A DNA stretch of 64,000 nucleotides, taken from Eledone cirrhosa (lineage: Eukaryota). Of this stretch, positions 1,834-57,257 are shown piece by piece. The notes below the pieces were generated by a model. It ran no database searches. It saw only the letters and a list, made by a program, of their open reading frames with translations, and was not told where the DNA came from. Position numbers and translations under genes: made by a program. Positions within the stretch are counted from its first letter, which is position 1; the number at the start of each line of letters is the position of its first letter. Location: positions 200,198,001-200,262,000 of the forward strand of contig OZ024741.1 in NCBI GenBank assembly GCA_964016885.1, given 5' to 3'.

Positions 1834-4333
<2,500 letters not shown>

Positions 4334-4335
4334 GC

Positions 4336-4435
4336 AAAGTGTCTTGCTCAAGGACAACGCATCACCAGGTCTGAGAATCGAACACACAACAACCATTCAA
4401 TTGCAAGCCATATGCTCTAACTACTAAGCTATGCA
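4336..4435 (-). mobile_element. tRNA-derived SINE fragment (second family)
   Basis: Reverse complement contains GTTCGATTC B-box and TCCTTGAGCAAGACACTT, shared with 28105-28320. Confidence 0.65.
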
Positions 4436-9721: not shown

Positions 9722-9789
9722 GTATGTGTGTGTGTCTGTATATATATATATATATATAATAAATATAATCCGAGTTTTTCGAATATTAA

Positions 9790-9979
9790 CAATTGTTTCT
9801 ACTTTTGGCACAAGGCCAGCAATTATCCCAGTACATTACTGTTACTTTATTTTATCGACCACGTAAGGATGAAAGGCAAAGTTAACCTCGGCGGGATTTG
9901 AGCTCAGTTCGTAAAGGGACGTAACTATGCTGGAAAGGATGTCGTCGAACCCTCTACCGATACTGCCAATCCACCGCCC
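9790..9979 (-). mobile_element. tRNA-headed SINE (major family) with TSD
   Basis: A-box TGGCAGTATCGGTAG and degenerate B-box on minus strand; TSD CGAATATTAA at 9780-9789 and 9981-9990. Confidence 0.9.
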
Positions 9980-10094
9980 TCGAATATTAATAACAACATT
10001 CGATTCGTTTGCAATTATGCAAACAAGCCTCATTTTTAAAGCCATGTCAGTAGAATGAGCCCCTCATTCTTGCTCTTGTGTTGGCATGCAAACA

Positions 10095-10144
10095 GAACTG
10101 CAGACACTAATGTTTCTGGGTATCACCCTTCATCAGTACAGTTC
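10095..10144 (-). ncRNA. Type I hammerhead ribozyme, canonical core
   Basis: GAACTGTA-CTGATGA-a-GGGT gat ACCC-a-GAAA-CA ttag TG-TC-TGCAGTTC; 8-bp stem I; GUC site. Confidence 0.88.
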
Positions 10145-10528
10145 ACTGTTCACCTGCCAACTGTCAGAACTGGTGAAAATATATATTTTCTAAATATACA
10201 GTGACTGATCGGCCAGATTTGTATATTAGCAGACCAGCTGATCAGTCAGATCTGCATATTAGTAGATCCATTGATCAGCTAGATTTGCATATCAGTAGAC
10301 TGGCCAGTCAGTTTCCTGTATACGAGCGATTAAAGGCCGGCTTTGCCATCTTCAAATGGAAAAAATACTTTCGCTCTACATGGCTGAATACAATAAATAT
10401 AATCTGAGTTTTTTCGAATATTAATAATAATATTTGATTCGTTTGCAATTATGCAAACAAGCCTCATTTTTAAAGCCATGTTAGTAGAATGGGCCCCTCA
10501 TTCTTGCTCTTGTGTTGGCATGTAAATA

Positions 10529-10578
10529 GAACTGCAGACACTAATGTTTCTGTGTATTACCTTTCATCAGTACAGTTC
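10529..10578 (-). ncRNA. Type I hammerhead ribozyme, second copy (weakened stem II)
   Basis: Same stems I/III and core as 10095-10144; stem II AGGTAATACAC has two mismatches. Confidence 0.7.
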
Positions 10579-10836
10579 ACTGTTCACCTGCCAACTGAAT
10601 TTGGAAAATAAACTTGAATAGTAAATTAAAATGAGAAGAAATAAAAACGTGTTTATATGTTTGAATGAAGAAAACGGGGAGGAATAACAGAAATACAAGA
10701 TATTTAAAAAAGGATTGGTTGCGGACCAAAGAAAAAACGCCACTGCCATATTCCACTGACGAATATGGAATTGACGAACATGGAACCAGCCAGGAGCAAA
10801 TGACCATGCAAATACACTCATAATTACACACACACA

Positions 10837-11152: not shown

Positions 11153-13044
11153 GATAACAAGTTATCGTTTTAGGTAATCCAGTTAGAGGTTGTGAGTACT
11201 CTGTACTATGGATAGTTTTAATGTATGGCGTTGTTTGACTCAACAAGAGGTTTCCTTAGTTAGGTGGCGAGCTTGCGAGAATTCCCATGTAGGTTATTCT
11301 TGGAGTAATAGTAGTGAAAGAGTGAAGAATAACATAGTCGGCTGTACAAAAAGGGTTTTATTTACAATATTAACAATTGTTTCACTGATCAGGTGAGTCT
11401 AAAGGCCGCTAATCACTCGAGATTGCGTCACTCGACCTTAAATACAGTGTGTCTCTGATCAAATCATCGGAATACTGGAGGGTGTAACAAATGGCATTGG
11501 TATTTATAGATACATCGGAGAATCAAGTGAATGAAAACAATAACATCAATAATAAAAGATAATAATAAAGAAGTTAGAATGAAAATGATAAAGATATAAA
11601 AAATAAGTAAAAAATAAGTACAGAATACGATTGCTGATAATAGTAGTGGTGGTGGTGGTGGTAGTTGAAGTTATAATGGTGAGTAAGTGGATGTGTAAAA
11701 TAGTGATGACGATAAAGATAACAATAAAATTAAAAGAAATACTAAATACATGATATGTAGTATAAATGCAAGAGGTATTATCAAATCTCAGAGGATTAAA
11801 ATAAAAAATGAAAAAATTAAAAAATAACAGATAAAAGATGAAAAATAATAAATAAAAAATAAGTAAGAGAGGAAGAGATAAGGGGCAGTTGGTCAGTTGA
11901 CAGCTAATAACAGTGGGGATGTGTGGAGCTAGTACATTAAAACCCGGGTGGTTCTGCTTGAATTCTGAGATTGCTGGATCGAATCATGCCGGTTTGAAAT
12001 TAGAGAACTTGGTAGCTGCTTTGTGCCTACAGAAAATTGATCGTTCTATTCTGTTGTTAAGCAGCATTTTATCATACTTTAAAATATAGAGCAACTCCAT
12101 ATTGCAGAGTCCGCAGTGGGACATTCCATTATTGTAGGCCCTTGCACTCGATAACTTCGACCAGCTAATTCCATATTCCTGGTTGGTGTCCTTAAGCTGC
12201 CAGATCTTATTGGCCAGCGTCGTTGAGTTCTCTAGTCTACGTTTTTTTTATAGAATGTCTATGTACATACCATCTTTTTTTGAATTCCACAGCAGTAGAA
12301 CCTATGTAGTGCCATGCTAAGTTTCCTGATTTGATAGTACACAGGTACACTATACTTGATTCCATGCATCTATTTTGTAGTGGGCATTTATCCGGCAGGT
12401 GGCAGTTATACTTGGAGGCCTTCCTGTGTGCAGGTTCTCCGTTGCAGTTTTGTATGTTGTTAGGGATGGGCTGAGATTTAGGTTTATTGATGTTTTGTTG
12501 CGATGTATCCTGACGTGTGTGTGGTTGTGATGTTGTTATGTGTTTGCGTTTTGTATTTGGTGCTATGATGTATGTTGGTAGGTTATTTTCCTTAGAGATT
12601 CTTCTATAGTTTTTTTTATGTTTGTGTGATTCTATGTTGGCTGCAATAGAGTAAGAGAGTTTGATAGTTTTTCTGTTAAAGATTCTATGGTATTTGTGTA
12701 GTTTAGGGAAGTGTTTGTCAATTAGCTTAAAGTTGTAGAAGGTAGTTTTGTTTTTATAGAGGAGTTGAATATTGGATTGAACCATAAGTATTTCCTGTCT
12801 CTGAATTTTCTGTAGTTCTTAAGGGTCCTTATATTAGTGTTCGGTTCGGTTATTTCTGGTGGTCGTTGCCTATTTCCATGTTTAGTTCTATATTTGTTAT
12901 TCCTATAGGTACGGGTAGTGTAGTTGTCGTTAGGTTTGTAGTTGCTGCCTCTATCTGGTATGTATTTGAGCCCCTCCTTGTGGCCTGCTTATGTAAAGCT
13001 ATGTTATAGTAGTTTGCGTGTTCGTTAAAAATCTCTAGGTTAGA

Positions 13045-16962: not shown

Positions 16963-18969
16963 TCAATTGTTTTGCTTTTTGAAATGATGAAAATAGCATT
17001 TTCTATTAATCATCACCATCAACATCACTTTAGATACAGTGCATTTAGATACAGTGAATGGTTGGTCTTTGTTGTTAAGGTCAAACTTTGCTTTTGTTAG
17101 CAATTGCTTCAAATTTTTTGGCTGTCTTTTACTAAGAGTCAAAGGTCGATCTGTGATTAAGCCTTTTAATTCATTACTTTGAGCAATGATCGGTAGGTTT
17201 GCTTTGGCAGTGTTGAAGATATTCTGCTGACATGGGTTGTGTGTCATTATAAATGGTATGACCAGTTCTTGGTTTCTTCTTCCTTGGGTTGTTCTAAGTT
17301 GTTGTATAGGTATTTTTATAGCCCGCTGTATGCCATTTTCTATAAGTAGAGATGGGTATTTTTGTTTGAGCAAAAATTCTCTTAGTTCTGTTAGGCGTTT
17401 GTACCTGGTATTCGTATCTTCTACAATGGTACAAATTCTTCTGGCTAGGCAGTATGGGATGTTGCGTTTTGTATGAGGTGGGTGGCACGACTTAAAATTC
17501 AGATATTGATGGGTGTCTGTGTGTTTATAATATATATCCGTGGTAATGGTGGTGTTGTTTTTGATTATCATTATATCTAAGAATGGTAATTTGGTCCTAC
17601 TCATCTCTTTTGTGAATTGGAGAGATGGGTATAGGTTATTCAGGAGGATATTGAACTCATCCAGAGTATCTAGAGATTCTGTCCAGATGATGAAACAGTC
17701 GTCAAGGTATCTCTTCCAAGATTTTTCAATGTACTTTCTAAAGTCAGTATTATATTTTTCCTCTATTTCTTGGTAGAGTTGTTGTTCTAAGTATCCCATT
17801 ACAGAGTTCGCGTAAACGGGAGCAAACTTCGTTCCCATCGCTGTGCCTCTAATTTGGATGTAATTCTTTCCATTGAAGAAGAAAGTGTTGTTTTCCAGAA
17901 TAAGTTTAACTGCGTCTAATATAAATGGCGCTGTGAATCTAATGGGAATCACTTCTCTATGTTTTTCCACCCAGTATTTAACCGCCTTTATTCCTAAATC
18001 ATGTGTAATGTTGGTGTAAAGGCTTACCACATCAAAACTGAGTAGAAGTGAATTCGTTTCCGTGGTTTTGGGAAGATGGGACAGGAAGTCGATATCATCC
18101 CGGATGAAACTGGGTATGTGAATACATAGTGGTTTCAAAATAATGTCAACAAAATTGCTTAGACGGTGAGTGGGGCATGTTGGACCAGCTATAATAGGTC
18201 TAAGTTTTAAGTCTTTTGGGTGTAGTAATTTAATGTACTCACTGTTTTGTTCTCTTACTGCCAGTTGTATTTCTTTTGACTTGTGAACTTTCGGTAGGCC
18301 ATACAGGTTGCTGGGTTTCGGCTCAAAATTGGTGATGTAGTCTCTTTCCTTATCAGTAAATGAGTTGTGGTATTTTGAAGCCAGGTTGTTGATCTTCTTC
18401 ATGATGTTGTGGTCTATATTTGACGGTATTTCATGATAGAATGTTGTGTCTTTCAGTTGTTCCTCAACCAAATCCTTGTAGTATTCAGTATCCATTATAA
18501 CAACTGCACCCCCTTTATCTGCTTGTTTAATTATTATTGTTTTATCATTTTGTATACGTTTAAGTGCAGACATTTCTGATTTGTTAATGTTTGGCCTAAC
18601 ATTAGTATTATGTCTAAGAGGAAATTTAGACAGGATGTCAATGTATTGGTCGAGATAGATATTTCTTCCTTTTGGCGGAGTGAAATTTGATTTATTCTTT
18701 ACTAGTGATTCATCACTCTCATTATTTTTATCAGCGAAGAATTCTACAAGACGTAATTTTCGACAGAATTCTTGGGTATCCTCCTTCAGTTCTTGGTGGT
18801 TGACTGTTGGAGTCGGTGTGAATTTCAGTCCTTTTGACAGAATTTGCATTTCATCATTGTCGAGATCTCTTTTAGATAAATTAATTATTTTAGGATCTAC
18901 GTGTACAGCTGTTTTGGGTATGTTTCCTCCTGGAGTTTTTCTTTTTCCGGTTTTTGTTGTCCTGACGTT
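16963..18969 (-). CDS. PLE reverse transcriptase (ORF2); GIY-YIG endonuclease missing
   Basis: LSKGLKF, ADKGG, YGLPKVHK, LRPII, FDVVSLYTNI, GTAMG, RYLDD, FLD, HP thumb; frame open from a stop at 18991-18993; ends at FTVSKC where the Zn-linker/EN should start. Confidence 0.88.
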   Translation of the reverse strand, partial: NVRTTKTGKRKTPGGNIPKTAVHVDPKIINLSKRDLDNDEMQILSKGLKFTPTPTVNHQELKEDTQEFCRKLRLVEFFADKNNESDESLVKNKSNFTPPKGRNIYLDQYIDILSKFPLRHNTNVRPNINKSEMSALKRIQNDKTIIIKQADKGGAVVIMDTEYYKDLVEEQLKDTTFYHEIPSNIDHNIMKKINNLASKYHNSFTDKERDYITNFEPKPSNLYGLPKVHKSKEIQLAVREQNSEYIKLLHPKDLKLRPIIAGPTCPTHRLSNFVDIILKPLCIHIPSFIRDDIDFLSHLPKTTETNSLLLSFDVVSLYTNITHDLGIKAVKYWVEKHREVIPIRFTAPFILDAVKLILENNTFFFNGKNYIQIRGTAMGTKFAPVYANSVMGYLEQQLYQEIEEKYNTDFRKYIEKSWKRYLDDCFIIWTESLDTLDEFNILLNNLYPSLQFTKEMSRTKLPFLDIMIIKNNTTITTDIYYKHTDTHQYLNFKSCHPPHTKRNIPYCLARRICTIVEDTNTRYKRLTELREFLLKQKYPSLLIENGIQRAIKIPIQQLRTTQGRRNQELVIPFIMTHNPCQQNIFNTAKANLPIIAQSNELKGLITDRPLTLSKRQPKNLKQLLTKAKFDLNNKDQPFTVSKCTVSKVMLMVMINRKCYFHHFKKQNN

Positions 18970-20243
18970 AAAAAATGGATTTTTCTCTGTTCAGGATTTA
19001 TATTCCTGTTGGTGTTCGCTTGATGAACTTTTGGTCGTGATATTATATTTGGTTTCGTTATGTATTTTGTCCTATTTTTGGTATTCTGTATATTATTTTT
19101 CTTCCTGTTAGCATTATTTTTAACAATCTGGGAAAATGACCTAGGTTTGCTTTCAGGTTTAGATCGTTTTTTCGTCCAGTTTCTTGTGGGCAATCTCTGT
19201 TGAGATCTTGAGAGTGATCTGGTTATTCTACGTTTTGTTTCCACATTCCTTGTTGGTAGTCTCTGTTGAGATCTTGAGAATGATCTCCTGGTTTTACTAC
19301 TTCTCATGGTCTGGTCAAAGGAATACCTATCGTGTTTGTGCTTTTTGTTCATGTGTGCGATAGGGTGTTTTTGTAGAAAAAGCGAAGAGTTATTGCCGTA
19401 GTTCTTCTTTGATTCAAGGTAAGGTGAGTGTTTGTGTTGGCACGTGTTCTCGCGTATGTTGTGTTGATGAGATTGTCCACTTTTAATGCTTTTTCTCAGG
19501 GTTCCAGAGTCTTTACCGTAATTTTCAGCATATTCATCGAGAAATAATTGTTTCTGCTGCCATACCTTTCTTGATTTGTTTTCTTCTTTTGAGATATCTC
19601 CGATCCATAGTTCTCGTAGTTTTTCAGCTATAATACCAGTCGTTAGCTTTGAAATTTCAACTTCAATTTGGTCATCAATAGCTTCATATTTGGCTTTGTA
19701 GCGGGATTGTTTACATTCAGAAATGGAGATGTCGGTCCTGAATTTTGTCAATGTAAGTTCCCATCGGAGTTTTGTTTCTTCTTCTGGTTCTCCTGCAATT
19801 TCTGTAATTAGGTATTTACGAGGGAGTATGGGTGCCGTTAGAGAGAGCCATTTCGAATGTGTTTCGACATATTTTTCGCATCTGTATGCTTTCCAGAAAT
19901 TTTGTTTTCTTATGTTAAGGAATTTTTTCCATGTCTTCCACATTTCTTTTCTTATTCGATGTGTTTTGTTTTCCAAATTTCTTTCGTTTATTTCTGACAT
20001 CCAAGGGGGTTGTGGTAGGCTTTCTCTTGTATCTTTGATAACTGTTGGTATAATTTCAGCTAAATTCTTAATTTCAGAGTTTATATGTTCAGTTATAAGT
20101 TTTCCGTCTGTAGATTGTTTTTCTATTTCCTTTAAAATAGAGGATTGTGTGTCCATCATCGTGATAAGTGTTGATAATTTCGATGATATCTCCTTTAGAA
20201 TTCTTTCTGATTCTGTTGGTTTCATTTGGTGCTTTCCAGACAT
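18897..20243 (-). CDS. PLE ORF1, 448 aa: helical/coiled-coil-like N-terminus and basic RS-rich C-terminus
   Basis: Uninterrupted ORF starting inside the pLTR downstream of the HHR; overlaps the RT frame in -1; contains a duplicated SRSQQRLPTRN repeat. Confidence 0.75.
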   Translation of the reverse strand: MSGKHQMKPTESERILKEISSKLSTLITMMDTQSSILKEIEKQSTDGKLITEHINSEIKNLAEIIPTVIKDTRESLPQPPWMSEINERNLENKTHRIRKEMWKTWKKFLNIRKQNFWKAYRCEKYVETHSKWLSLTAPILPRKYLITEIAGEPEEETKLRWELTLTKFRTDISISECKQSRYKAKYEAIDDQIEVEISKLTTGIIAEKLRELWIGDISKEENKSRKVWQQKQLFLDEYAENYGKDSGTLRKSIKSGQSHQHNIRENTCQHKHSPYLESKKNYGNNSSLFLQKHPIAHMNKKHKHDRYSFDQTMRSSKTRRSFSRSQQRLPTRNVETKRRITRSLSRSQQRLPTRNWTKKRSKPESKPRSFSQIVKNNANRKKNNIQNTKNRTKYITKPNIISRPKVHQANTNRNINPEQRKIHFLTSGQQKPEKEKLQEETYPKQLYT

Positions 20244-20447
20244 GTTGGCATATACACAATAGGAATATATATATAGATATAGATAGGTAAATATACACGG
20301 GTGTGTATGATTGTGTATAGAAGATTATATTAATAAGAGGAATTCCAACTTTGTCTGATTTACTCGTTTTATTTACAATCCTTTAAAATATATATAATGG
20401 TATTATAATGAAATAGTATGATAGAATATTAAATTCTAAGTGTTAAT

Positions 20448-20486
20448 TGAACAAGTACTTTCATGCTTTCGCAATCTTCAGGTTCA
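20448..20486 (-). ncRNA. Minimal hammerhead ribozyme (pLTR copy 2)
   Basis: Identical to 16700-16738. Confidence 0.82.
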
Positions 20487-20759
20487 TGATATGTGGTGAC
20501 AGTCGAGTTTGCAATTTTCAACTGTAATGAGATGGGTAAATTTCCTACCTTTTATACATTTTATACAGAGAAAAGTGGCTCCAGAATGCAAAGCCCTGTA
20601 AACTGTATTTCGACCAATCAGTGTGTAGTTTCACTGAATTACTACAGCTGATTGGTTTAAGCGTCACGGCTGGTTGAGCATGCTAACGACCAATAGTCAT
20701 ATCCAACGTATCAATTGTTTTGCTTTTTGAAATGATGAAAATAGCATGAAAATAGCATT

Positions 20760-20870
20760 TAAACCAATCAGCTGTAGTAATTCAGTGAAACTACACACTG
20801 ATTGGTCGAAATACAGTTTACAGGGCTTTGCATTCTGGAGCCACTTTTCTCTGTATAAAATGTATAAAAG
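20760..20870 (+). promoter_or_regulatory. Putative PLE pLTR promoter (CCAAT boxes + TATA-like motifs)
   Basis: CCAATCA 20764, TGATTGG 20799, TATAAAA 20854 and 20863, all upstream of the HHR and ORF1; function inferred. Confidence 0.4.
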
Positions 20871-20932
20871 GTAGGAAATTTACCCATCTCATTACAGTTG
20901 AAAATTGCAAACTCGACTGTCACCACATATCA

Positions 20933-20971
20933 TGAACCTGAAGATTGCGAAAGCATGAAAGTACTTGTTCA
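20933..20971 (+). ncRNA. Minimal hammerhead ribozyme (inverted pLTR)
   Basis: Same motif as 16700-16738 on the plus strand. Confidence 0.82.
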
Positions 20972-21409
20972 ATTAACACTTAGAATTTAATATTCTATCA
21001 TACTATTTCATTATAATACCATTATATATATTTTAAAGGATTGTAAATAAAACGAGTAAATCAGACAAAGTTGGAATTCCTCTTATTAATATAATCTTCT
21101 ATACACAATCATACACACCCGTGTATATTTACCTATCTATATCTATATATATATTCCTATTGTGTATATGCCAACATGTCTGGAAAGCACCAAATGAAAC
21201 CAACAGAATCAGAAAGAATTCTAAAGGAGATATCATCGAAATTATCAACACTTATCACGATGATGGACACACAATCCTCTATTTTAAAGGAAATAGAAAA
21301 ACAATCTACAGACGGAAAACTTATAATTGAACATATAAACTCTGAAATTAAGAATTTAGCTGAAATTATACCAACAGTTGTCAAAGATACAAGAGAAAGC
21401 CCGTTCCAT

Positions 21410-23240
21410 CTATCTGTGTGATAGATGGAACGGGTGGACCAGAGCCATACGGACACCCGAAAACCACGATGAACTGAAGAAAATGATTGCACATGCGGTA
21501 GGGGCCAGCATAAAATTAACCCTTAAGGAACATATGTTCAAATTTAATGGAAAAACATATGCCCAAGAGGAAGGAGCAGCCATTGGTGTTTGCATTGCAG
21601 GCGACATAGCTAACTTATTCATGGTATGGTGGGACAGTAGACTTAAACTTAAACTTAAAGAACAATTAGAAGACAGCTTAACCCTGATAATGTACTCCCG
21701 CTACGTAGATGATATAAACATCGTAGTTAAGACACCCCCACTAGAGAACAGTCAGGAACTAGAGAAAAACACAATGGAAAGCATCCAGCAAATAGCAAAC
21801 TCCATCCACCAGAGCATTAGAGTTACTATAGACTACCCAAGTAGACACCCCAACCATTGATTACCTGTACTAGACACAGAGCTCTGGTTAGATACCATTA
21901 ACAACCAAAAACAAATCCTCCATTCCCATTATGCCAAACCCATGACTTCCAAACATCTGATCCACCGAAACTCGGCCATTTCGGACCATACCAAAATCAA
22001 CATACTGATTGCGGATTTGGTACGGGTGATGAGAAATGTGTCCCGCATGTGCAACCCCGAAGAACTAGAGAGACACATACAACACTTCATCCACCGTATG
22101 CAGTTCTCTGGCTACAATCAGAGAGATAGAATCAGAGTGTATAGAGGAGCCAGAACCAAATGGGAAAAAATGGTAAATAATGACATAAATGGGACCTGCC
22201 CCTTGTATAGGAGCAAATTTTGGAATAGAATAGAAAGAACTAGGAACAAGGCCAATAGAATAAACTCATGGTATGATAGCAATAAATACCAGAGTGTAAT
22301 GTTCATCAATACATCCCCTAGAGGCGAACTAGCCTACAAATTTAGAAGGGCCCTAAATAAACATAAACTCAATATTAAGATAGTAGAAAGACCAGGTACC
22401 TCCGTAAAAACACTTATTAGCAAGACATACCCGTTCCAAAGACCCTCATGTATAGATAAGAAATGTATAACCTGTAAAATAAGCCCCCATATTAACTGTA
22501 AAACTAGAAATGTAGTGTATAGCATAAGATGTACTGAAGGACAATGTAGAAACAAAAATATAGTGTACATAGGTGAGACAGCTCGTAGTATAGGGGAACG
22601 GATAAATGAACACTGGCGAGACCTTCAAGATAATAAAGAATCATCTGTACTCTACCAACATGCTAAGATAGAACACAAGGGTAAATTAGAGAACATAGAA
22701 ATAAAAATAGAATCCACACACAGAAAAGATGCAATGTTTAGGCAAATTACAGAGGCAGTAAGCATAAAAGAATTACAACCAAAATTAAATAGAAAATATG
22801 AGTGGAACAGCAACATCACAACTTACAATTAAGGACAAAATGAAAATACACACACACATAGAACAAACAACCAACCAACAACATGTAAATAAATAAACAA
22901 ATAGATAAATGAACACAAACACACACAGACACCCGGATGTGGCGCATGCGCAAACTGAGCACACAACACACACAGAAACAAAATGGCGTAGGACAGAAGA
23001 AAGGAAAGGCACAGAAACAAAGAAAGGAATCCCCAGTCACTGAAGAGGTCACAGAGTATGTGACGAAAGGACTATGACTATATATAAACAACTATCTGGT
23101 TGTGGAACCAACCAACCAACCAGAAATTTATAAGTTTGTAGATTTGTAAATTTATAAATATATAATAAATTGAAGTGAAAGCAACTGGTGCGTGTGTTTC
23201 TTATTGGCAACATGACCCTCCCAAAGTATAACAATATATA
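21410..23240 (+). mobile_element. Penelope-like element, 5'-truncated (same family as 2162-4333)
   Basis: RYVDD RT part, one in-frame TGA (CGA in the sister copy), then 296-aa thumb + GIY-YIG 21942-22832 and HHR tail. Confidence 0.92.
23035..23079 (+). ncRNA. Minimal hammerhead ribozyme
   Basis: AGTCA-CTGAAGA-g-GTCACA gagta TGTGAC-GAAA-GGAC-TA-TGACT. Confidence 0.75.
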
Positions 23241-23314
23241 TATATACTTATATATATATATTGTTATACTTTGGGAGGGTCATGTTGCCAATATATATAC
23301 ACAATTCAGAAACG

Positions 23315-23512: not shown

Positions 23513-23918
23513 GCATATATACATACATACATATATACATATACACACATACACACTTACATATACATATAATTATTGGGGGGTGGGGATTACATTTATT
23601 AACCTGAAGTTAAAGCATTATATATGTTTACTTAATGGTATCAGTTTTAGGAAATGATAGTTTCACCGAAAGTAGTTTTTGAATACATCTTCTCTTTTCA
23701 TGATATCCGGATTACATTGAGTTCTTCATACGAATTGGACACTACCGTAAACTTTTGGTAGATTTATCTACATACTTTGCTCCTATTTTCATGGGGATAT
23801 TCTTATTTTAATATTGTATGTGTATATATATTTATATATATATACATATATGTGTATAACTTTATAACTCCATATACAAATAGTTGAGCTCTTTTTCTTG
23901 TCCATTATCCATATCACA

Positions 23919-26360
23919 ATGGAAAAACAATACTTGGGAACTTCTTTAAAGAATATACCATTACCTTCTAAGGATGATTTCTTACTTCTTATGATACAAA
24001 AAACCAACCAATTTATCAGAAGAGTCAGATGGAGGGCCTACCACTTCGATAAAAAAACAAAATGTACTGATAGGAAATATTTGTATGATTTCACTACATA
24101 TAAAAATCCACCACACAACTCCTTACTTGAAAACTTTGAGAAAGACCTTTTTAATTTAATCAAACACCTCAAATTTAAGAGGTATAAATCTAATTTTCAA
24201 AAGGACCTTGATTCTACCCTATTTAACCTAAAAAAATCTAAAAAAATCCATGTCCACTCGGACAAAACTGGAAATCTATATCACATGGATATTGAAAATT
24301 ACAATGAGTTCATATATAAAGAACTCAGGAAAAATTATAGAAAAACAAACAATGTGTCACTTACCAACATCAACAACAAAACACACAGCATAGTGAATAG
24401 ACTTAATATTGAAGATAGAACTGAACCTTTGGCATTGAAAAGACCACACTTCAACCTGAAAGATCATAAATCTAACTTTAACTCTAATCCTTCTATAAGG
24501 CTTATATGCCCTTCCAAATCTGATATTGGAATAATTAGTAAAACATTTTTAGATAGAGTCATCCCACAACTAAGAAAACATGTTAATTTACCACTCTGGG
24601 AAAACACATCCCAGGTAATTAACTGGTTTAATAATATTAGAAATAAATCCTCTGCTTCATTTCTACAATTTGATATAGAGAATTATTATTCTTCTATATC
24701 ACCTATACTCCTGAACAAAGCCTTGATATTTTCTAAAAATAGATCTAACTTAACTTTGGATGAAATTAATATTATTACACATGCTAGACTAATACTATTG
24801 GAATTTCAGAATGAATACTGGACCAGAAACACATATAGTAATCTATTCGATATTACTATGGGCTCATTTGATTCTGCCCAAATTACTGATCTTGTGGGCC
24901 TCTTTCTTCTTTTTAACATAAATGCTTCCTTTCCCCACCTTAAAGGTGGTTTATATCGTGACGACTGTCTTCTTCTTTCCAATAACCTTAGCCTCTCAGA
25001 GATAGAAAAAAATAAAAATCTTATTAGAACTTTCCTTAAAGACTATTATAGTCTAGATATTACATTTGAAAACACAAGTAAAGTAGTTAATTTCCTAGAT
25101 ATAACATTAGACTTATCTACGGGTATCTACCAACCTTACCATAAACCCAACCAAAATTTACACTACATACACTCACAGTCTAATCACCCTAAATCTATCC
25201 TTAAAAACCTTGCATATAATATATCACTTAGAATTTCTAACCTTTCGTCTAACCAAGATGTATTTGATAAAAATGCGACCTTTTATAACGAAGCTCTAGC
25301 TAGAAGTGGCCACAAAAATAGATTAGTATATATACCTTCTACCAATAACACTACAAGCATACAACCTAATATTACCAACAAACACCAAATGAAACATACA
25401 CACCTAAATGCCACTCACACTATACCCCAAAACACCAACATAAAACCAAATTTCTCTAACTCTTCTAATATACAGTATAGTAACTCTCAAAAAACTACTC
25501 TTCCTACAACTCTAATAAATGTTAATAATAAAACTCCTAATAAACAAGCTAAAACACCTAAATCTAAAATTGTGTGTGGTGAGGTCATTAACAATAATTC
25601 TCCTAATAAACATCAGGATGCATCCTATAAAAACAATAAACAACATCGAAACCGTAATAGACGAGTTACATGGTATAATGCTCCATTTAATTTACAAATT
25701 AAGGATAATATACCTAAAAAATTCTTTAATATCCTAGAGAAAAACTTCCCGCCAAACCACAAATACCATCAAATCTTAAATAGATCAACGGTTAAATTCT
25801 CCTACTCAACAACCAAAAACATAAAACAAAATATAAGTGCCTATAATGCATATAAATGTAAAAAAAACATGAGTAAACCACCAGTACATCAAACTAACCA
25901 TAATATCTCCTCAGATACAGGATTCACGAAAAGTTGTAACTGTAGAAACAAGGCAAATTGTCCATTAAAAGGAAATTGCCTTGTTAATAACATAGTATAT
26001 AAATGTAAAGTTAACACTAAGGACTCAATTTATTCATATATAGGAGCTACCTCTAACAAATTTAAGGTAAGATTTAATACCCACAAACATAGTTTTAAAA
26101 ATGCCGCACTAGCTAATACAACATCTCTAGCTGAAATAATTAATAGTTATAGAAAAAGGAATATAGATTATGACCTGACCTGGAGTGTGCTCAAAAGGGC
26201 CACCCCTTATCAAAATAGTAGATATGAATGTAGATTATGTTCCCAAGAACTTTTTGAAATAATGAAATCTAAGGATATCCTATTAAATAAGTGACAGGAA
26301 TTAATAATATCGTGTAATCATAAACTGAGAAAAACCTTTAAATATTACAAACCTAATTAA
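23919..26360 (+). CDS. Naiad-like PLE RT-GIY-YIG polyprotein (one in-frame TGA at 26292-26294)
   Basis: SLKNIP N-terminus, SDKTGN, LKDHK, FDIENYY, MGS, GLYRDD, CNC-x5-C-x5-C, IVY..YIG, CRLC; the frame continues past TGA to SCNH..KPN*. Confidence 0.9.
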
Positions 26361-28716: not shown

Positions 28717-28781
28717 TATTTTGTCTGATGAAGGCATACCATAATTTATTGTGATGTCCCTGAAATATGTATAATGAAATA
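28717..28781 (+). ncRNA. Hammerhead ribozyme
   Basis: TATTTTGT-CTGATGA-AGG..CAT...ATG..CCT-GAAA-TATGTA-TA-ATGAAATA; stem I has G.U pairs. Confidence 0.65.
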
Positions 28782-54626: not shown

Positions 54627-57257
54627 ATTATTATTATTATTATCATCATTAGTATTATTATTATTATTATTACTATTTGGCTCCCTCGGTTGAGCACGCT
54701 ATTGACTTATATTCATCATGCAGAAACAACATCTGAATATTTCTACAAAGAACATACCCGTACCAAGCAGGAAGACATACCTAAAACTCCTGATACAGAA
54801 AACAGACTCGTTCATTAAAAGGTTGCGTTGGCGTGCCTTTTATTTCGATAATCAGGAAAAAGGTGGACAATAAACAGGATAAATTTGGGTTTAAAACTTA
54901 TAATAACCCTCCGAGTAACCCAGCATTGCTACCCTTCGAAAATGATGTTTTGGAACTCATACGGAGTATCAAATTTCGGAATAGGAGCTATTTCTTCCAG
55001 CAGTACCTGAAGAATAGAATTCGTTCTATTAAGGATTCTAACGCCATGCACCTCCACTCCGACAAAACTGGCAATCTATATCAAGTGGAGCGCAGTGCTT
55101 ACCATCAACTGCTACATAATGTTGTAATTAAGGATTACCGTAAAACTAATCGGAGTGTCATTAATGACATCAACGATGCTGGGTTTAAAATCACCTCTGA
55201 TCTCAACATCCAGGACCGGACTGAACCACTGGACCCTATTTCTCCCCACTTTACCCTAAAGGATCACAAATCCAATTTCCCCAACAGCCCCTCTATTCGG
55301 ATTATTAACCCTACGAAGTCCGATTTAAGTAGACTTAGTAAAAGGATTTTAGATAGAATTATACCTGAAATTAGAAGCTTGGCCCCTCTTGCACTGTGGA
55401 ACAATTCTTTCGCGGTGATTGATTGTTTCAACGGCATATGCAACAAGGAACATTGCCGTTTTATCCAATTCGACATCAATAATTACTACTCCTCCATCAC
55501 TTTACCACTTCTTCTTAGAGTTATCAATTTCGCTAAAACACTCACAGTGGTTAAGGATTTCGAAGTTGATGTCATCCTCAATGCCCGTAAGTCGGTGATT
55601 AATTCCGACGACTCTATTTGGATTAAAAAATCTAATAGTACTCCATTCGACGTGAGTATTGGCTCCAGCGATTGTGCGGAGGTTACTGATCTTATCGGCC
55701 TTTTCCTTCTTTTCTCTATCAAGGAAGAATTCCCCAACGTGGGCGGTGGTTTGACCCGTGATGACGGTCTTTTGACCATGACAAAGTGCGGCCCACGTGC
55801 TTGCGACAGGTTCAGAAAAGAACTCACAGCCTTCTTTAAAGGCTTCAACCTCTCCATACAGGTTTAGGCCAACCTCTCGGTCGTTAATTACCTCGACGTT
55901 ACCCTAAATGTATCCAATGGCTTGCACTACCCGTAGAGAAAACCGAATGATACGCTTAATTACATAAGTAAGCATTCTAACCAACCATCCTGCCAGCATA
56001 ACCAAGAACCTGGTAAGAAACGTTTCTTTGTGGCTTCGCCGTCTATCTACAAACGAGCATATTTTCACCGACCATTCCACATATTACAATGAAGCTCTTG
56101 CTCGGAGTGGATTTGTCGATAAGGTAGCATATACAGAGTATGAGAATAGACCCAGGAAAAATAGATCCCGACGCATTATATGGTATAACCCACCATATAA
56201 TATGGAGGTGGCCACACCATTAGCTAAGATATTTCTCTCCCTTATTAAGAAGCATTTCCCCCCAGCACATAAATATAATAACATTTTTAATAGAAATACC
56301 ATTAAAATTTCTTACTCTACGACTCCTAACCTTGCACATAACATCACTGCTTCAAATTTAGCTAAATTACCTAGCCGTAGGAACACGTGCAAGCCTGTAG
56401 CTAGTACTAACTGTAATTGTAGGAATCGGGTAGACTGCCCCCTATCCGGGAAATGCCTCTCCAGTAACATTGTCTACAAATGTAAGGTTGAAACACCCAC
56501 GCCCTGTAAGGCCTACATAGGGTTAACCGCCAATAGATTCAAGCAGCTTCTTTGCATGCATGCCCATTCTTTTCTTAACCCTTTAAGAAGGAATATGACG
56601 TCACATTCAGCTTATATCTGGAGTCTAAAAGACAACCACACCCAATATAGGATACACTGGGAGATCCTAGCTAAAGCTAGATCGTATAACGGAAATAAAA
56701 GACCATGCGACCTCTGCGCCGCTGAAGCTCTGGAAACACTCTACGCCAATGATCACATCTTAAACAAAAAATCTGAGGCAATTTCGGCTTGTAAACATAA
56801 ATTGCATAAAACTTTCCTGTATTACAGCCACACATTATATCCTAACGGATAGTACGAAAAACACGCGGATAATTTACCTCTTGATGTGGTAGCTAAGTAT
56901 ATTTTATGTTTATATCATTACTTATTTTTATAGGTAAGTATATATTACCTGTATGTTCTGTGAAGGTACGTATACTTTCTCGTACGTATATTTGCTTCTA
57001 TTTGTTATAGGTGTATATATTATATTATATAAACTGGTACATGTGTATATGGTTATGTGTATACGTGTATTTTGCGTTTGTGTGGGTATACGGGTTTGCA
57101 CGTATATAGGTGTGTATATGTGTACTTTGTGTTTTTGTTGACGTACGTTTAGCGAACATATGTGTATTTCCCTATAGGTATGTGTGTGCGTGCGTGCTTT
57201 ATATACGTATTTATGTGTGTATATTTATATACGTTTATATAATTATATGTAAACACG

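Follow-up and report, generated by a model that had tools for sequence, protein, structure and literature searches.

A dispersed non-coding hammerhead repeat in Eledone cirrhosa with the insertion anatomy of Penelope-like elements

Given the presence of two hammerhead ribozymes (HHRs) within a single minus-strand insertion (9757..10597) of a 64,000-nt stretch of Eledone cirrhosa DNA (contig OZ024741.1; hereafter, the window), we asked what kind of element this locus represents: a retrozyme that yields a circular RNA, as the original prediction held, or a different type of mobile repeat. We conclude, with a probability of roughly 0.8, that the locus is an aged copy of a dispersed, non-coding HHR repeat, and that the RNA of this repeat was likely written into AT-rich DNA with enzymes (reverse transcriptase and endonuclease) supplied by an autonomous Penelope-like element (PLE).

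We numbered the repeat unit from the first base past the HHR cut (position 1 = window 10536). Under this numbering, the insertion comprises unit 374-434, 1-434 and 1-149, i.e., ~1.5 units; it is 5'-truncated, without a tail, and ends in (AT)n, and no TSD of its own was seen at the window copy. The predicted arrangement of two ~205-bp direct repeats around a non-coding ~225-bp core was recovered. The upstream repeat, or pseudo-LTR (10388..10597, minus strand), has its 5' end at unit 374, and the downstream repeat (9757..10163, minus strand), which is interrupted by a SINE, ends at unit ~144-149 in an (AT)n tract. When the SINE and one copy of its TSD are subtracted, the repeats measure 206 and 210 nt and are identical at 194 of 210 columns (92%); direct alignment of 9980-10163 with 10414-10597 gives a spacing of 434 nt and 95% identity. 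The repeats are real, but their 5' limit is not fixed: it varies across the family and is simply the 5' truncation point, which in the window copy falls inside a zone (365-388) preferred by the 5' ends of two-HHR copies. The core (unit 150-373; 10164..10387, minus strand) is made of a T-rich tract, a long hairpin of three ~33-nt repeats and an AT-rich hairpin. Three motifs within it (ATGCAAAT, ATGCAGAT and ATACAAAT; 10217..10290, minus strand), spaced by 33 nt and which we take to be octamer-like, constitute a candidate promoter. Finally, unit 145-177 (10360..10392, minus strand) is a 33-nt segment that serves other copies as an optional 3' 'tail', and which we infer to be the interval between two reverse-transcription start sites.

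Scanning the whole window for the HHR motif produced three matches, i.e., a poor one at 28725 and the two predicted minus-strand type-I HHRs, one per repeat, each with an 8-bp stem I, CTGATGA (at 10570 and 10136) and GUC. Cuts recomputed from these motif positions fall at 10537/10536 and 10103/10102, delimiting the same 434-nt monomer (10103..10536, minus strand) as originally proposed. The monomer is non-coding (its longest ATG-started frame is 49 aa, and no ORF >83 aa was present in the two copies examined) and highly self-paired, with an extended stem I joining its ends. The downstream HHR (10095..10144, minus strand) is typical of the family: its core consists of CUGAUGA, an extra A, a 4-bp stem II (G10.1-C11.1), an extra A, GAAA and a 3-bp stem III, and its stem I extends from 8 bp to ~30 bp with bulges. 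The unpaired A on either side of stem II is present in both window HHRs and also family-wide. Stem III of this HHR lies inside a 10-nt self-complementary stretch (-8.8 kcal/mol), and the ribozyme could therefore work as a dimer. In the upstream HHR (10529..10578, minus strand), stem II is weakened, as first noted, with three departures from the family's common letters and 2 of 4 pairs kept. The window copy is old and probably inert, and probably too decayed to make the predicted circular RNA; its age and broken upstream stem II count against reading it as a circle-making retrozyme.

The SINE-like repeat (190 bp; 9790..9979, minus strand) carries A/B-box-like motifs on the minus strand and is flanked by a clean 11-bp TSD (TCGAATATTAA; 9779..9789 and 9980..9990, plus strand), in agreement with a later insertion into the left repeat, outside the monomer. 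This SINE is far more abundant than the HHR element, and ARAGORN found no tRNA in it. Unit ~103-128 is a hot spot for its insertion: of 164 copies of the SINE across the fetched loci, 58 lie here with the same orientation and 2 are reversed; since the junctions there vary, the insertions look independent. Both the SINE and the microsatellites presumably resemble those of octopus genomes.

Comparing the 434-nt monomer to the 3.0-Gb assembly returned 3975 candidates, the best other copies being 88-91% identical. Exact motif counts genome-wide amounted to 1104 HHR cores, 3802 3' ends and 322 core motifs (reversed-pattern controls: 0), which, scaled by exact-match rates of 45/215, 115/364 and 19/98, respectively, yield family estimates of ~5,300, ~12,000 and ~1,700. 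As the original prediction anticipated, the period recurs: a spacing of 434-438 nt was observed directly in hundreds of copies of the family, and cut-to-cut monomers were 431-442 nt long in 15 of 16 cases, the remaining one being 470 nt. Across 24 monomers, the mean deviation from the column majority was 5.1%, with the window copy the most diverged (7.2%), and two linked subfamily haplotypes were found with intermediates present; this divergence and subfamily structure suggest that the burst that made the family is old. One artefactual chain of 113 and one duplicate row (L012) were removed, loci L061-L090 were excluded from the chain statistics, and L211-L240 were kept apart in the junction test. 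Copy lengths from a triple-unit HMM proved unreliable and this approach was abandoned, and what looked like a hard length limit around unit 230 came from the length of the query; longer copies are present. The literature on cephalopod or octopus retrozymes and on Penelope hammerheads yielded no description of the family, which supplements or Repbase/Dfam may hold.

How copies of the family are inserted is evident from their ends. Across ~300 fetched loci, 3' ends lay at ~144 or ~168-177, and 5' ends were scattered, i.e., the family has two fixed 3' ends 33 nt apart and a variable 5' truncation. An inverted, truncated partner arm was common (68 inverted pairs among 254 terminal chains), and the tail was on exactly one end in 65 of these 68 pairs, on neither end in 3 and on both ends in 0; with 111 of 254 ends tailed, about half of the pairs would be single-tailed by chance. 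Untailed ends ran into (AT)3+ in 122 of 143 cases. The two passes of an insertion, and likewise its two arms, had subfamily letters in common (68/399 and 48/353 differences, respectively, versus 50% in random pairs) and shared rare variants at rates of 8.7% and 7.3% (versus 1.6%), indicating that they derive from the same source lineage. In L012 / L241, an inverted arm runs through 115-434 and 1-273, then jumps to the tail segment (145-177). The anatomy observed here, i.e., a fixed 3' end, variable 5' truncation, partial tandem, an inverted 5'-truncated copy at the 5' end, a 30-40-bp tail on one end only and an AT-rich target, is that of PLE-mobilised sequences; the accessible text of 10.1101/2021.04.23.441226 describes such tails, inverted copies and insertion pattern. 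The pseudo-LTR HHR, too, has an extra base between 9 and 10.1, a G10.1-C11.1 pair and a palindromic helix III, which are PLE-type features according to PMC4209133. In lizard Poseidon, reverse transcription starts at two internal sites downstream of the HHR, and the tail is what lies between them (PMC11167929). The use of PLE machinery, originally put forward as a general idea for animal retrozymes, is thus well supported for this family by its tails, inverted arms, (AT)n targets and fixed 3' ends.

PLE-like ends and targets would also be expected if the repeats were the 5'-truncated ends of an autonomous PLE, with the core as no more than a long promoter or 3' untranslated region of that PLE, and other families of this genome indeed carry this HHR core behind a PLE-like reverse transcriptase (RT) frame that has decayed. 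However, 75 of 96 core-anchored chains extend beyond unit 166, all of them seamlessly into the preceding unit and none into an ORF, and the PLE ORF pieces near copies are at unrelated ORF positions. Since no ORF is entered by any sampled copy, these are not truncated remains of an autonomous PLE; the core belongs to the element itself and is no ORF remnant, and no ORF with RT and GIY-YIG, the mark of an autonomous PLE, was found in the element. The stump explanation is largely refuted, and we consider it highly improbable. With the period recurring as well, the outcome named in advance as fatal to the original prediction did not occur.

If the element is a passenger, its partner might be expected to share its ends. 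Among 30 GIY-YIG loci and the window's five PLE fragments, no autonomous partner with the terminal repeat on the sense strand was found, nor did neighbouring ORFs and contig loose ends reveal one. A single GIY-YIG locus (L071) was considered as a partner and rejected, as the copy there lies antisense and was taken as a chance insertion. Similarity to other families is confined to the HHR core. When this core was sought with another stem III, 19 matches were obtained: 10 mutated family copies, ~7 from other families and 2 chance-like. Other families with the same extra-A HHR core were seen at L334:1452-1564, L339:1453-1565, L340:1463-1575, L338, L342, L344 and L348 (~1500). Of these, the L348 family is abundant, and L334 and L340, whose stem I is long as in the 434-nt element, may form a second family of mini-elements. 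In L351, the family of L338, L342 and L344 is found downstream of a PLE-like RT frame; this frame is decayed and matches the window's PLE by tblastn (E 1e-18), and Pfam recognised none of the L351 frames. The family is a relative in HHR design, not an established partner.

Other PLEs were observed in the window. One, with a long N-terminal frame, occupies 16963-21360 (minus strand); its terminal repeat contains two CCAAT-like boxes, a TATA-like box and an HHR, and an inverted copy lies upstream. Two copies of another PLE family, with a C-terminal GIY-YIG-like region, are located at 2528-4347 (minus strand) and 21360-23291 (plus strand); this family has an HHR-like motif ~200 nt past the stop and (AT)n ends, and includes a short perfect palindrome at 23204-23291. 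PLE-like frames were also present at 23868-26294 (plus strand; open over 808 aa), 54794-56852 (plus strand) and 12237-12818 (minus strand), two of them with a DKT motif as in the Hydra clade.

The 5' ends of the family also bear on ribozyme activity. Exact junctions at which the unit sequence begins at position 1, 5 or 431 numbered 51, 33 and 13, respectively. Inspection of 45, 31 and 13 distinct junctions (six position-1 matches lay outside this set) identified 38, 25 and 9 true 5' ends by script, and ~37, 23 and 7 by eye, amounting to a pile-up at the predicted cut of ~37 versus 7 four bases upstream. Similarly, two anchored samples contained 9 breaks in the 6-nt cut window versus 3.4 expected (p=0.008), with the break rate raised over positions 4-17 and falling upstream of the cut. 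This genomic pile-up suggests HHR cleavage in vivo, run-off at a cleaved RNA end being its simplest reading. Of note, position 1 contrasts only weakly with position 5 (51 vs 33, p=0.06) and the excess reaches ~15 nt downstream, such that part of it could be due to stalling in stem I or to microhomology at the junctions.

Taken to its extreme, this caveat would mean that the HHR is catalytically dead family-wide, with polymerase stalling in stem I, together with microhomology, accounting for the surplus of 5' ends. The core is indeed atypical: it has a 3-nt loop and an additional A flanking stem II on each side, of which the one before G12 may affect catalysis, it is not a canonical HHR with loop 1-loop 2 tertiary contacts (most of which the mussel retrozyme lacks as well; PMC7229834), no Rfam hammerhead matched the locus, even up to E 10, and the predicted minimum-energy fold is inactive, the active fold being less stable in both copies examined (-10.2 vs -16.4 and -3.5 vs -12.0 kcal/mol). 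(An Rfam HH9 match at 1676-1751, with 24 bits and E 0.12, lacked the core motif and was discarded.) In a lizard PLE, moreover, cleavage was dispensable in vitro and RNA ends at the cut site were not seen, according to the available part of PMC11167929, and 1 of 9 Xenopus dimers was cleaved in that of 10.64898/2026.07.22.740005. However, the step in break rate is located at the predicted cut and not at the entry to stem I (0.004/nt over 41-18 versus 0.027/nt over 3-432 in the core-anchored sample), and sister families have an identical core, their stem I sequences differing yet remaining paired. We thus regard a dead ribozyme as unlikely. The alignment fold had no net covariation term (+0.79), with any double change in 6 of 122 pairs. 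Support for the predicted structure from subfamily variants is weak: of 14 variable columns, 6 fall outside pairs, while pairing is preserved in 6 (with one compensatory pair, 40/44) and lost in 2.

Granting cleavage, the main intermediate could be a retrozyme circle, in which double cleavage frees a 434-438-nt monomer, a host ligase closes it, and the PLE RT primes internally and rolls round. Several observations agree with this. Passage through the cut site is free of scars, which were looked for in the passes and genome-wide (169 of 192 passes were of modal length with no substitution peak, and clean deletions of the cleavage-site base numbered 0 in the genome). There are multi-unit copies of 2.2 (L308), 2.3 (L251) and 2.7 (L266) units, the break rate is somewhat higher beyond one full turn, and the monomer is far better folded than its shuffles (z -8.6 and -7.8), with stem I holding the ends together. 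Circles are also known from coral, mussel and axolotl repeats of similar size (PMC7229834, in the text available). However, the fold z-score is partly due to internal repeats, more than two units were found in just 3 of 96 core-anchored chains (two HHRs in ~20 of 96), only one exact core-core pair exists genome-wide, and no tandem arrays were seen among the sampled chains. Furthermore, a turn-limited circle would shift the 166-190 pile-up between tailed and untailed chains, and the pile-up was unmoved (7/33 vs 9/40). Chains composed of 1-434 followed by 1-144/177 require an RNA cut at the first HHR only, i.e., a linear RNA cut once. These genomic footprints show that some templates, at least, were linear; the data allow a circular monomer and do not require one, and we would bet, if not heavily, against it as the main intermediate. 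The same tentative standing applies to the full scenario, in which PLE enzymes reverse-transcribed a ribozyme-cut, host-ligated 434-438-nt circle ~12,000 times, starting at two internal sites. If true, the genome would record both in vivo hammerhead cleavage and PLE mobilisation of a non-coding circle, with a core variant, its stem II flanked by an extra A on each side, common to several families here. The longest copy seen (L266; G000:C1:193148894-193151926) also has a tailed inverted arm, and its earliest pass has a deletion spanning the HHR cut site.

Second-pass 5' ends cluster at 365-388 (7/16, versus 5/51 on the first pass), a zone that was delimited post hoc and does not appear on the first pass. 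Located just downstream of the octamer-like repeats and the AT-rich box, this cluster possibly resembles a transcription start, and with that limit it counts against a circle as the main template.

Taken together, we favour a model in which a partner PLE protein would nick (AT)n DNA, and reverse transcription would begin within the RNA, with one start site 144 nt and the other ~177 nt downstream of the HHR cut, much as in lizard Poseidon. Copying would then continue across the cut site and on into the unit before it, and stop at random, at the HHR cut (where the RNA was cleaved), or near unit 370 (a possible transcription start). Often, the other DNA end may also act as primer, with the other start site giving rise to a second arm in inverted orientation. 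Most of the templates were probably linear multi-unit RNAs that had been partly cleaved.

Until now, the case for what mobilises animal retrozymes has been built on co-occurrence and the similarity of terminal repeats; in this family, a unit with an HHR and no coding sequence bears the full footprint of PLE insertion. Its thousands of fossil 5' ends form a readable record in which cut RNA was probably used as a template, and the 0.44-kb unit is a minimal candidate substrate for PLE reverse-transcriptase assays; the age of the family and the missing partner limit its value. A PLE origin of animal retrozymes has already been proposed; what is new here is the direct insertion-footprint evidence and the unusual hammerhead core.

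With respect to known systems, animal retrozymes are tandem HHR repeats that yield circles, and it was suggested that PLEs mobilise them (PMC7229834); PMC4209133 already presents a circle model for PLEs; and a 2026 preprint makes the case, on co-occurrence and terminal-repeat similarity in vertebrates, for a PLE origin of retrozymes (10.64898/2026.07.22.740005). The family resembles animal non-LTR retrozymes, as characterised in the available parts of PMC7229834 and the preprint, in its non-coding unit within 150-450 bp, type-I HHR, low GC, self-paired monomer, and proposed mobilisation by PLEs, which are present in the same genome. It differs in that its copies are dispersed partial tandems and not arrays, its circle is predicted only, and its HHR is PLE-type (extra base between 9 and 10.1) with a further extra A; in addition, the available parts of these two sources do not report the full tail and inversion footprint seen here. 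Of the original claim of a retrozyme family, a non-autonomous family of HHR elements stands, and its dispersed 5'-truncated partial tandems with inverted arms take the place of retrozyme arrays. As a canonical HHR is lacking, no arrays were seen among the sampled chains and the circle is predicted only, we do not class it as a retrozyme. Plant LTR retrozymes, with a type-III HHR, fixed LTRs and a 4-bp TSD, differ from it as well, given its type-I HHR, variable 5' limit and a window copy at which no TSD was seen.

The family is also close to canonical EN+ Poseidon/Neptune PLEs, which, in the accessible portions of PMC11167929, PMC4209133 and 10.1101/2021.04.23.441226, likewise feature a partial tandem, a pseudo-LTR with HHR, an inverted 5'-truncated copy, a 30-40-bp tail on one end, AT-rich targets and a palindromic helix III; it departs from them in having no ORF, a 0.44-kb unit, a long stem I (~30 bp with bulges) and starts 144/177 nt from the cut. 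Non-autonomous PLEs are themselves known, e.g., Chlamys MRC1, a non-coding PLE passenger that forms pseudo-LTRs as the present element does; according to the part of 10.1101/2021.04.23.441226 available, the Chlamys elements are mostly without HHR and their 3' end resembles that of the partner, whereas no such partner was found here. The family works like a retrozyme-type PLE passenger.
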